A stretch of 4,826 nt of DNA from a virus (taxonomy: Duplodnaviria > Heunggongvirae > Uroviricota > Caudoviricetes), in the IMG/VR virus record IMGVR_UViG_2713896787_000012. One strand, 5' to 3'. The notes beneath the pieces are model-generated. The model did not search any database. It was not told the origin of the DNA and saw only the letters and a program-made list of their open reading frames with translations. Shown piece by piece: positions 1,419 to 2,799 of this stretch. The position numbers and the translations under genes were made by a program. Numbering within the stretch: position 1 is the stretch's first letter; every line of letters begins with the position of its first letter.

Positions 1419-1517
1419 AGGCGATAAACCAACTAACAACTAAATACTGAAGATTTAAATCAGAAACGATTTTTATTAAATCCTTAACCGGAGGGATTCC
1501 TGCACCCTCAGAACATC

Positions 1518-1540
1518 AGGAGGCCGCCCGAAAGGGCGGT
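1518..1540 (+). promoter_or_regulatory. Structured ribosome-binding region: SD AGGAGG (1518-1523) followed by a GC stem with GAAA loop (1523-1540), just upstream of ATG 1546
   Basis: Stem ccgccc (1524-1529) pairs with gggcgg (1534-1539) around loop gaaa. The hairpin sits between a strong SD and the start codon, so folding would bring the SD to about 5 nt from the ATG. No U-tract follows, so it is not a terminator. Confidence 0.35.
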
Positions 1541-1545
1541 AAGAA

Positions 1546-1764
1546 ATGAAACATTATTTAGAAAAAAATTACCCACGAAAGAGCAGAACAACAGAGTTTC
1601 TGTTTTTCATTCTGTTTATAGTGTTGATGATACCGATATCCCCGCTATTACTGGTCTGGATAATTGGAAGGACATTTGAACCAGTTATTGAGCTATATAC
1701 CGATGTGACATGGGAATCATTCAGCGCACTGCACAATAAAATTAATCCGTATAAGGAAAACTGA
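1546..1764 (+). CDS. Small membrane protein (72 aa, one predicted transmembrane helix), AT-rich; likely horizontally acquired cargo
   Basis: ATG 1546, stop TGA 1762-1764. Hydrophobic stretch FLFFILFIVLMIPISPLLLVWIIG. Codon usage is AT-rich with rare codons (ata, aga, agg, cta), unlike flanking genes. Stop lies 1 nt before the next ATG. Confidence 0.45.
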   Translation: MKHYLEKNYPRKSRTTEFLFFILFIVLMIPISPLLLVWIIGRTFEPVIELYTDVTWESFSALHNKINPYKEN

Positions 1765-1765
1765 T

Positions 1766-2323
1766 ATGAGCACTATTACCAGAGAACGCGCGGAGATTAA
1801 ATCATACATCACAGGCTTCCTGAGCGACTCGGCGCACGATAACAAGTCTTCAGACAGCCTGCTGGCTAATGTGTTTCGTATCGCGCTGGCATCACTGGAA
1901 GCAGAGCCGATAGCAATGGTAGTGCCTGATGAAATGGATTTGCTTACCTGCCATCTCGACGGTGTAACTAAAACATATGCTGATGGCTGGAACGCCTGCC
2001 GCGTCGCCATGCTTCAGGCCGGAAACTTTCGGGAAAATAAGAATTCGTCAACCAACAATTTTCGGGAAATCTCGGAAACGTCAACCAGATCTCCGATAAC
2101 TCTGGATGGCTGGATAAGCTGTACTGAGCGAATGCCTGAAAAGAGCCAGAACGTGCTTATTTCGATGAATATCGATAGCGAGGCTGGGCCATTAATATAT
2201 TCCGCACGCTATCTCGGAGGCACGTTCCGGCGCGGAGGTATAGCAGTTAGTCCGGGTAATGATCTTAGGCAAGCAACCCACTGGATGTCGCTACCAGAAC
2301 CGCCGCAGGAGGTGAATCAATGA
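1766..2323 (+). CDS. DUF551-like phage protein (185 aa)
   Basis: SD AAGGA at 1753-1757, ATG 1766. C-terminal region (WISCTERMPE ... THWMSLPEPP) matches my recollection of the conserved DUF551 C-terminal signature common in lambdoid nin regions. Confidence 0.7.
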   Translation: MSTITRERAEIKSYITGFLSDSAHDNKSSDSLLANVFRIALASLEAEPIAMVVPDEMDLLTCHLDGVTKTYADGWNACRVAMLQAGNFRENKNSSTNNFREISETSTRSPITLDGWISCTERMPEKSQNVLISMNIDSEAGPLIYSARYLGGTFRRGGIAVSPGNDLRQATHWMSLPEPPQEVNQ

Positions 2324-2438: not shown

Positions 2439-2492
2439 TGCAGCGGGTGCTTGAGGCTATCTGCCTCGGGCATGAACACCAACGGCAGATAG

Positions 2493-2566
2493 AGAAAAGC
2501 CCCAGTTAACATTACGCGTCCTGCAAGACGCTTAACATTAATCTGAGGCTCAATCCATGCTGAACA
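2493..2566 (-). ncRNA. sok: Sok-like antisense RNA (type I antitoxin), about 70 nt, complementary to the hok leader and mok translation-initiation region
   Basis: Minus-strand promoter lies just to the right; the transcript would start near 2565 and run leftward across the mok ATG (2557). It ends in an imperfect hairpin (gcgtc/gacgc core at 2515-2530 flanked by 9-bp ttaacatta repeats) followed on the minus strand by ttttctc (2498-2492). Ends are approximate. Confidence 0.5.
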
Positions 2567-2799
2567 CATGTAGGTTAGCCTCTTACGTGCCGAAAGGCAA
2601 GGAGAAGCAGGCTATGAAGCAGCAAANNNNNNNNNNNNNNNNNNNNNNNNNNNNNNNNNNNNNNNNNNNNNNNNNNATCGTCATCTGTTTAACCGTCATA
2701 GTGACGGCACTGGTAACGAGGAAAGACCTCTGCGAGGTGCGAATCCGAACCGGTCAGACGGAGGTCGCTGTCTTCGTAGACTACGAATCTGAGAAGTAA
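2557..2799 (+). CDS. mok: Mok-like leader reading frame, in frame with and containing hok (arrangement as in chromosomal mokC/hokC)
   Basis: ATG 2557; N-terminus MLNTCRLASYVPKGKEKQA resembles the MokC N-terminus (MLNTCRVPLTDRKVKEKRA, from memory) and reads straight into the hok start MKQQ. Confidence 0.55.
   Translation: MLNTCRLASYVPKGKEKQAMKQQXXXXXXXXXXXXXXXXXIVICLTVIVTALVTRKDLCEVRIRTGQTEVAVFVDYESEK
2572..2600 (-). promoter_or_regulatory. Putative sok promoter on the minus strand (-35 TTGCCT, 17-nt spacer, -10 TAACCT)
   Basis: Reverse complement of 2595-2600 (aggcaa) gives TTGCCT and of 2572-2577 (aggtta) gives TAACCT, with a 17-nt spacer. Position matches the R1 sok promoter embedded antisense in the mok 5' region. 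Confidence 0.5.
2614..2799 (+). CDS. hok: Hok/Gef-family type I toxin (small membrane toxin); N-terminal/transmembrane part masked by 50 N
   Basis: After the gap: IVICLTVIVTALVTRKDLCEVRIRTGQTEVAVFVDYESEK, nearly identical in pattern to the HokC/Gef core (ALVTRKDLCEVHIRTGQTEVAVFTAYESE, from memory). ATG 2614 (MKQQ) is preceded by AAGGAGAAG. Stop TAA 2797-2799. Apparent length of 61 aa depends on the true gap size. Confidence 0.85.
   Translation: MKQQXXXXXXXXXXXXXXXXXIVICLTVIVTALVTRKDLCEVRIRTGQTEVAVFVDYESEK
2627..2676. other. Run of 50 N inside hok/mok
   Basis: Directly visible in the sequence; covers the hok N-terminal/transmembrane coding part. Confidence 0.99.

Follow-up and report, generated by a model that had tools for sequence, protein, structure and literature searches.

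In Escherichia coli, a Shine-Dalgarno (SD) sequence lying 22 nt from the AUG of a linear RNA is outside the functional range of translation initiation. In phage T4, hairpins reduce such distances from 22 to 5 nt for gene 38 and from 27 to 11 nt for gene 25 (PMC3014915). Mutations that destabilise these T4 structures lower initiation and probing has confirmed the folding (PMC3014915), and sites of this kind have been named non-contiguous or split ribosome-binding sites (PMC7297116). We analysed a stretch of 4,826 nt, here called the window, from a tailed phage genome of the IMG/VR database (record IMGVR_UViG_2713896787_000012), in which an untranslated leader of about 100 nt (1447-1545) directly precedes a short open reading frame (ORF) of the DUF4014 family. 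With a probability that we put at roughly 55%, this gene encodes a DUF4014 membrane protein and the 3' end of its leader is a portable split ribosome-binding site of the T4 gene 38 type. Such a site is proposed because the SD, 22 nt away, is too far off for a linear RNA and because a hairpin closes the gap. The gene belongs to an already annotated family, and the leader is the useful result of this study.

A first-pass annotation of the locus had placed a perfect AGGAGG 22 nt from the start codon, with a GC stem and a GAAA loop between the two, and all of these elements were found in place (Table 1). Split sites are recognised by a strong SD more than ~15 nt upstream of the start, and the distance here is 22 nt. 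The other AGGAGG motifs of the window offer an internal control: there are four perfect copies, all on the + strand ahead of start codons, three of them at 6-8 nt (863, 1083 and 2320) and only that of the DUF4014 gene at 22 nt. No ordinary SD lies 5-10 nt before AUG 1546, where the sole candidate, GGCGGU, has one central mismatch and is hidden within the 3' stem arm. The intervening hairpin, hereafter hairpin 2, has a folding energy of -15.5 kcal/mol (z = -3.9; none of 200 shuffled sequences folds as well), and its pair probabilities stay at 0.89-1.0 from 30 to 42 °C in a 200-nt context. This is the only SD-hairpin-ATG arrangement of its kind in 1.5 Mb of retrieved prophage DNA.

In the mechanism that we propose, the very stable GAAA hairpin would fold between the SD and the AUG. 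Once closed, it would bring the SD against the foot of the stem and leave only the five unpaired bases AAGAA before the AUG, the effective spacing falling from 22 to 5 nt, and the 30S subunit could thereby contact both signals. By this geometry, the hairpin would be expected to enhance initiation. As the leader ends at the hairpin, a gene recombined in 5-10 nt behind it would inherit the initiation site. The placement of start codons was scored in the 152 leader copies that had enough flanking sequence for their neighbouring genes to be read; in 149 of them, an ATG opening an ORF, in some cases a decayed one, stands 5-10 nt past the last base of the stem.

The leader sample came from two anchored scans of IMG/VR, which returned 162 copies with 54 distinct cores. 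None of the 54 distinct leaders deviates from the central GGAG of the SD, even among the copies retrieved through an anchor lying outside this motif, while the neighbouring bases do vary (CAUCAGGAGG, CAUCCGGAGG, CAUCGGGAGA, CAUAAGGAGA). For hairpin 2, 94.7% of the alignment cells are paired, with one double change from G-C to A-U (L256); the first position of the stem is either G.U or, in 11 distinct sequences, A-U. A mirror test made use of the symmetry of a hairpin: C-to-T in the 5' arm and G-to-A in the 3' arm amount to one mutation seen on the two DNA strands, yet in the + strand RNA pairing survives, as G.U, after the 5'-arm change alone. Across the entire IMG/VR collection, scans found 5'-arm variants at C49, C50 and C47 in 52, 3 and 5 contigs respectively, 58 of these 60 being C-to-T and two C-to-A, and the mirrored 3'-arm variants at G58, G57 and G60 in 0, 0 and 1 contigs. 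The C-to-T variants occur in at least nine sequence contexts. An asymmetry of 58:1 is predicted by selection for pairing in the + strand RNA and not by a DNA-level palindrome. Conservation, folding and mirror-variant scans show the geometry, the stability and the selection pattern of the SD-hairpin-AUG arrangement, which is real and appears to be under selection. The first-pass annotation had described the structure as the ribosome-binding site of the 72-residue gene, and on this point it has to be corrected: the structure is not specific to that gene and belongs to a leader common to at least six unrelated gene families.

Several observations weigh against a split site or narrow what it could explain. 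In the covariation test, shuffled controls score as well as the real alignment, which varies little, and the result is not significant. Copies counted in the mirror test cannot be treated as independent, one haplotype accounting for 44 of the 52 at C49. In the predicted ensemble at 37 °C, the AGGA of the SD has an unpaired probability of only 22-37%, being otherwise paired with conserved UCCU at 1498-1501 or 1481-1484, and this modelled occlusion means that the leader may restrain or condition translation rather than simply promote it. No ATG follows the hairpin in three of the 152 copies, and one downstream family, MEITKE, has its own GGAG past the hairpin, 7 nt before its AUG; because of these two facts, the hairpin may have a function besides bridging. 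The DUF4014 genes of phages 933W, epsilon15 and g341c have ordinary SDs 5-8 nt from their starts and no significant structure, so the device belongs to the leader and is not required by the DUF4014 protein. As for the protein, the topology and the envelope target discussed below are inferences only.

The pairing of the SD is the starting point of another explanation, which we consider unlikely although it deserves attention: the leader would be a translational restraint or switch and not an enhancer. The two UCCU motifs (1481-1484 and 1498-1501) and CCCUC (1505-1509), as mimics of the anti-SD, would mask the SD, the hairpin would fix the AUG region, and only a particular condition, for instance temperature, the binding of a protein (CsrA or the like) or an RNA, would release translation of the cargo. 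In the predicted ensemble, AGGA is paired 63-78% at 37 °C, its likeliest pairing falls from 0.52 to 0.28 between 30 and 42 °C, and both the minimum free energy (MFE) and the centroid structures of 1475-1560 include a UCCU:AGGA helix; moreover, hardly any variation is seen in the UCCU stretch AATCCTTAACC or in the loop UYCU, neither of which is part of a hairpin stem. However, the masking helices are of just 4 bp and are supported by sequence variation no better than by chance, the invariance of the two UCCU motifs is partly a matter of ascertainment as both lie inside or beside the search anchors, and no ligand or partner is known for such a switch. A masked SD and a hairpin-bridged one can coexist. 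Combining them, the leader could be a mobile 'expression slot', whose hairpin-bridged ribosome-binding site is gated by the two UCCU masks together with GGAGGG as a decoy SD and CCCUC as an internal anti-SD; we regard this extension as improbable. If it were true, any gene recombined behind the hairpin would gain the same conditional translation, responsive to temperature or to a host or phage factor, and the whole would be a gene-cassette system built on an RNA leader and not on a recombinase.

The position of the leader also invites a role in transcription or RNA stability, as a nin terminator or a Rho entry site by which the genes behind it would require antitermination, a boxB-like site serving an antiterminator of the N type, or a 3' hairpin protecting the upstream message, which we judge very unlikely. 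Phage lambda carries nin terminators between its replication genes and Q, and the leader, a gap of more than 100 untranslated nucleotides in an otherwise tightly packed operon, occupies the matching position. Its GAAA loop is of the GNRA type, as is the folded loop of lambda boxB. Against these resemblances, no U-tract follows the hairpin on either strand (its tail reads UAAGAAAUG) and the hairpin is absent from the list of the terminator scan; nothing in the C/G ratio singles out a Rho site, C showing no marked excess over G; and no boxA-like sequence was seen by eye when the lambda consensus, and not this phage's own nut sites, served as the guide. The promoter scan found neither a sigma-70-like promoter nor a terminator in the leader region. 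Above all, transcriptional roles do not account for an AUG that is nearly always within 5-10 nt or for the invariant GGAG. Two further candidates were rejected: translational coupling to an upstream ORF ending at the TAA or TAG often present after the hairpin, as no start codon is available in that frame beyond its stop at 1477-1479, and RNase III processing, as a 7-bp stem is too short by general knowledge of the substrates of this enzyme.

The leader is a portable non-coding element, separate from the DUF4014 gene. A BLAST search with 1400-1560 found its core in 2,645 of 5,426 complete E. coli genomes, at up to six places per genome and with ~4,300 copies in all, and in most of these 2,645 genomes only query positions 76-149 (window 1475-1548) match. 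About 125 copies are alike from CTGAA (window 1447) onward, whatever the upstream gene. The leader always lies in the nin region and is oriented like almost all annotated neighbouring genes. It was not found described, while split sites as a kind are known from T4: no Rfam family matches 1400-1600 at E<=1, the listed RefSeq matches carry no non-CDS (coding sequence) feature over it, and a literature search with its sequence returned no description. The K-12 prophage Qin, the only one examined in that strain, has no copy. A scan of genome contigs with the pattern AACATCAGGAGNNNNNNNNGAAA proved too loose, all 120 returned loci being chance matches, and gave no cross-species sample. About half of the complete E. 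coli genomes carry this RNA element, which appears to be selected and has no annotation; they often have it in several prophages of one strain, and Shiga-toxin-producing lineages are among them.

Hairpin 1 belongs to the MFE structure with a pair probability of 0.46 at 37 °C; 98.9% of its alignment cells are paired and variation is scant, a conservation that is partly forced because the search anchors include its two arms. The linker from hairpin 1 to the SD varies in sequence and is constant in length. Nine leader copies have a G-to-T change that breaks hairpin 1 (GGATGG; for instance L005:3001-3255). In the GGATGG copies that were examined, the gene behind the leader is a DUF7167 gene interrupted by a stop codon, a hint that in dead prophages the leader degenerates along with its cargo. 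Two IMG/VR loci (L264 and L282) have an AAAA loop in hairpin 2 and no start codon after it (GGCCGCCCAAAAGGGCGGCTGTTCCGCTGTTCAATT...). In the 5' half, a perfect AT-only inverted repeat, GATTTAA/TTAAATC, lies within 1452-1482, and the other allele has TTAAATT/AATTTAA at about the same place; these repeats could be due to chance in AT-rich DNA, or could form a protein-binding site or a weak RNA stem.

Around the leader, genes have been exchanged on both sides, and the leader itself is a fixed landmark of the nin region in many E. coli lambdoid prophages. Across the 152 scored copies, at least six types of upstream gene end occur before it and at least six gene families behind it, combined in many ways; the genes behind it are DUF7167-like (74 copies), MxELTKE (34), DUF4014 (24), MEITKE (8), MLTLK (5) and MQxIKE (4). 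Annotated examples place it before DUF7167 genes and before one disrupted gene beginning MAELT. Similarity among loci stops a few bases past the hairpin, and DUF4014 is a swappable cassette: prophages that match the window in upstream flank and leader have other genes at its position. The ORF is thus literally missing from prophages that share its flanks, an absence that the first-pass annotation had proposed to count against the gene, but it reflects cassette exchange and not a non-coding sequence. At six loci (L006:1980-2007 and five others), a truncated leader (GGGAGG, hairpin and TAAGAA) stands before DUF4014 about 1 kb upstream of a full leader in the same prophage. That SD and hairpin stay with DUF4014 where the rest of the leader is lost speaks for a split site. 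Two copies of the hairpin within 1 kb could mediate deletion or exchange of a cassette.

This traffic could be taken as the whole explanation, the leader being mainly a recombination linker, or boundary sequence, homogenised by exchange between co-resident prophages. The SD and hairpin would then be the initiation region of the first gene that carried them, and the hairpin would have no special role. The many combinations of upstream and downstream genes fit this explanation, as do the presence of up to six leader copies per genome, the second, truncated copy 1 kb away in one prophage, and a compensated frameshift located exactly at the junction, in the N-terminus of the window allele. Yet homogenisation alone does not account for the 58:1 excess of wobble-preserving over pair-breaking variants, for an invariant GGAG with variable neighbours, or for the tight placement of downstream AUGs at 5-10 nt, and we find it a distinctly weaker candidate than a selected initiation site, with little chance of being the full account. 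The leader marks the exact junction where cargo genes of the nin region are exchanged. As an aid to annotation, start codons found 5-10 nt past the hairpin are probably real, and the leader should help to understand how the accessory genes of prophages are expressed and reshuffled in pathogens.

Turning to the product, the ORF at 1546-1764 is a genuine protein-coding gene under purifying selection. The ratio of nonsynonymous to synonymous substitution (dN/dS) of the window copy is 0.20-0.36 against 23 diverged alleles, and therefore indicates a coding gene under constraint. The homology search asked for by the first-pass annotation was conclusive: residues 1-72 align with positions 1-72 of the 72-position Pfam model PF13198 (DUF4014) at 87.2 bits (E 1e-24), where the curated gathering threshold is 23.2 bits, and PHROG 1832 matches at 151.5 bits (1e-44). 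Its prediction of one strong hydrophobic segment was likewise confirmed, residues 18-40 (FLFFILFIVLMIPISPLLLVWII) reaching a Kyte-Doolittle maximum of 2.92 over 19 residues. Together with the full-length family match and the dN/dS, this upholds the description of a small single-pass membrane-protein gene of phage origin.

The flank on the N-terminal side of the segment has five K/R and one D/E, and the C-terminal part three K/R and five D/E. From this charge distribution, with a basic stretch before the helix and a net acidic tail, an N-in/C-out topology is predicted, and the product would be an inner-membrane protein with a cytoplasmic N-terminus and a conserved helical tail of 30 residues in the periplasm. 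The AlphaFold2 model is a single unbroken helix over residues 14-66, with a mean predicted local distance difference test (pLDDT) score of 84; it predicts a membrane anchor running on into a helical tail of ~26 residues, and as it consists of one long helix, structural matches to it are meaningless. Conserved clusters are YPR (9-11), E17, P30, W38, G41, E45, E49, Y51, F59 and the C-terminal LHNKxNPY, among which P30, E45, E49, Y51, F59, LHNK (62-65) and NP (67-68) are invariant and Y69 nearly so. As a guess that remains doubtful, the tail could bind a host envelope protein and in this way modify the cell surface or block phage entry. Judged by its operon position, it would be an accessory gene of the delayed-early class in lambdoid and P22-like phages.

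The window allele begins with MKHYLEK in place of the family consensus MTTLFRK (1546-1572). The difference is a compensated -1/+1 frameshift, one base being missing after ATGA and one extra being present after the A7 run; as YPR (9-11) is kept behind this recoded N-terminus, the first seven residues are evidently not critical.

A toxin of the Hok-like type I class, another toxin-like protein or a spurious small hydrophobic ORF could at first sight be envisaged, as the ORF is small, hydrophobic, AT-rich and full of rare codons, and as true hok/sok genes are found 700 nt further downstream. Purifying selection and the conserved polar C-terminal motif speak against all of these, and the dN/dS largely refutes them. 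A Pfam scan of the 72 residues gave no match besides DUF4014 and in particular none to Hok/Gef, no antisense-RNA family is present (the Rfam sok match at 2445-2619 belongs to the separate hok gene), and the DUF4014 gene is co-oriented with its operon and packed into it. We consider these interpretations barely credible. The superinfection-exclusion or toxin-like role suggested by the first-pass annotation found no support in PADLOC, Pfam or literature searches: PADLOC returned no defence-protein match for the product at E<=0.01, the literature search for DUF4014 yielded no study, and the accessory-gene screen of PMC12373910 included no DUF4014 protein.

DUF4014 is a very small family, confined to enterobacterial phages. 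It comprises 179 clusters at 90% identity among 5.8 billion sequences, the named sources being only Escherichia, Salmonella and Shigella, and an exhaustive profile search of 1.84 billion representatives returned 27 matches, many of them fragments. Homologues include L0067 of 933W (NP_049467), gp46 of epsilon15, gp23 of g341c, gp39 of ES18 and a protein of the P1-like phage D6, and in all cases examined the gene is located in an early or nin operon. Two legacy product names circulate for the family, and the literature searches found no paper supporting them: 'acetyltransferase inhibitor' is an old RefSeq name for epsilon15 gp46 that is quoted in the g341c record, the current epsilon15 record reading 'hypothetical protein', and 'released from the phage upon host infection' was traced to a PHROG description.

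Composition has to be judged in the light of this family. The region 1440-1764, described by the first-pass annotation as an AT-rich island using rare codons, does have a GC content of 38.2% against 51.2% in the remaining window, a value as low as that being found in 0.8% of all N-free segments of 325 nt. Rare codons amount to 10 of 72 in the ORF (13.9%; AGA, AGG, ATA four times, CTA twice, CGA and GGA) against 1-10% in neighbouring ORFs. The further step of reading this composition as a sign of recent separate acquisition does not hold. The ORF alone has a GC content of 35.6%, and all 27 distinct DUF4014 alleles collected, from E. coli and Salmonella phages alike, are at 35-40%; low GC is thus a trait of the family, helped by its Phe, Ile, Leu, Lys and Asn codons. 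The idea of cargo survives in the form of the swappable cassette, and low GC is no evidence for its acquisition.

The chromosomes of many E. coli O157:H7, O26, O111, O121 and O145 are 100% identical to the window over 1420-1790. In strain PV15-279, the matching region is within a decayed lambdoid prophage adjoining rspAB, where the genes follow one another on the + strand in the order DUF1627, small hypotheticals, DUF4014, DUF551, hok/sok, a YgiW-type OB-fold gene, a 90-residue hypothetical, DUF968 and RusA. The locus is a nin-like region, flanked by the replication genes on one side and the gene of antiterminator Q on the other. Two runs of N, at 1226-1275 inside the upstream hypothetical gene and at 2628-2676 inside hok, are masks standing for 26 and 20 real bases of the reference prophage, so that coordinates further downstream are offset relative to RefSeq.

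Among the neighbours (Table 1), DUF551/EaA genes adjoin or neighbour DUF4014 in 933W, g341c and the window prophage. The stretch AMLQAGNFRENK is common to the DUF551 protein of the window and to one MxELTKE product encoded behind a leader. An unannotated ORF of 27 hydrophobic residues (MTWPEAFTTVGIAMAVALVEYSICRWG) occupies 2320-2403 on the + strand, its ATG overlapping the DUF551 stop (ATGA); it has a perfect AGGAGG at 2307-2312, 7 nt before the ATG, and no RefSeq CDS. It gave 82 tblastn matches in the retrieved prophage loci, including a diverged form, MSRPDAFA--GVAIAIAFLVYVICRWG, and is probably a real gene for a small membrane protein.

Table 1. Features of the leader, the DUF4014 gene and the neighbouring genes in the window
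Feature	Position	Strand	Description or evidence
Leader 5' half, AT-rich	1447..1478	+	two diverged alleles; the window has the rarer 'type A'
Leader core AATCCTTAACCGGAGGGATTCCTGCACCCTCAGAACATCAGGAGGCCGCCCGAAAGGGCGGTA	1479..1541	+	near-invariant; 94% mean column identity (54 distinct versions, 162 copies)
Hairpin 1	1491..1509	+	GAGGG (1491-1495) pairs with CCCUC (1505-1509); 9-nt loop with conserved UYCU
Shine-Dalgarno AGGAGG	1518..1523	+	22 nt before ATG 1546
Hairpin 2	1523..1540	+	G1523-C1529/G1534-U1540; six G-C pairs and a closing G.U; GAAA loop
Unpaired AAGAA	1541..1545	+	five bases from stem foot to AUG; unpaired probability 0.7-0.98
DUF4014 gene, 72 aa, WP_000683609.1	1546..1764	+	Pfam, PHROG, RefSeq CDS, dN/dS
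Transmembrane segment, codons 18-40	1597..1665	+	hydropathy, charge distribution, AlphaFold2 helix
DUF551 (EaA-like) gene	1766..2323	+	Pfam PF04448 5e-20; starts one base past the DUF4014 stop
hok/sok type I toxin-antitoxin locus, complete	2445-2799	+	Rfam sok 113 bits at 2445-2619; Hok/Gef CDS ends at 2799

Several known systems help to place these observations. Small inner-membrane proteins of phages that act on the envelope include the entry blocker gp15 of HK97, Imm of T4, SieA of P22 and Iap of D3, an inhibitor of the O-antigen polymerase. The DUF4014 product resembles them in its size class, its single or few transmembrane helices and its status as an accessory gene of temperate phages, a likeness that is an analogy only, since no sequence similarity to them was detected in Pfam, PHROGs or PADLOC. 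Within the family, the homologues of 933W, epsilon15, g341c and ES18 are full-length matches of like length, 47-76% identical to the window protein (50% for epsilon15 gp46), with a single transmembrane helix and LHNKxNPY. They differ in genetic setting: in 933W, epsilon15 and g341c, the gene lies in the early-left 'ea' region and is coupled to the preceding gene, whereas in the window it lies in the nin region behind the leader.

Other comparisons concern the leader and its cargo as a unit. Morons are cargo genes of deviating base composition that bring their own promoter and terminator. The DUF4014 cassette has neither, as no sigma-70-like site was found in 1400-1545 and no terminator after 1764 in the promoter and terminator scan, and it is translationally packed against the next gene. 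The GAAA loop would suit a nut site, but such sites lie just downstream of an early promoter, and the leader is found within the nin region with start codons directly after it. The boundary or linker sequences of mosaic lambdoid genomes are, like the leader, short, conserved, non-coding stretches at junctions where modules are exchanged; unlike them, the leader carries a selected RNA structure, and to our knowledge such boundary sequences are shorter than its ~100 nt.

Close counterparts are the sites of T4 genes 38 and 25, phage genes in which, as in the window, the SD is too distant and a stable hairpin lies wholly between SD and AUG. The leader has no sequence relation to them, and its SD is perhaps additionally masked by upstream UCCU motifs. 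The T4 cases were proven by mutagenesis and probing, whereas that of the leader is inferred. Each T4 site serves one gene of a virulent phage, while the leader site is portable across at least six unrelated families in temperate phages. If the split-site interpretation is true, a mechanism of two T4 genes would extend to temperate phages, where it would have become a portable module used again and again.

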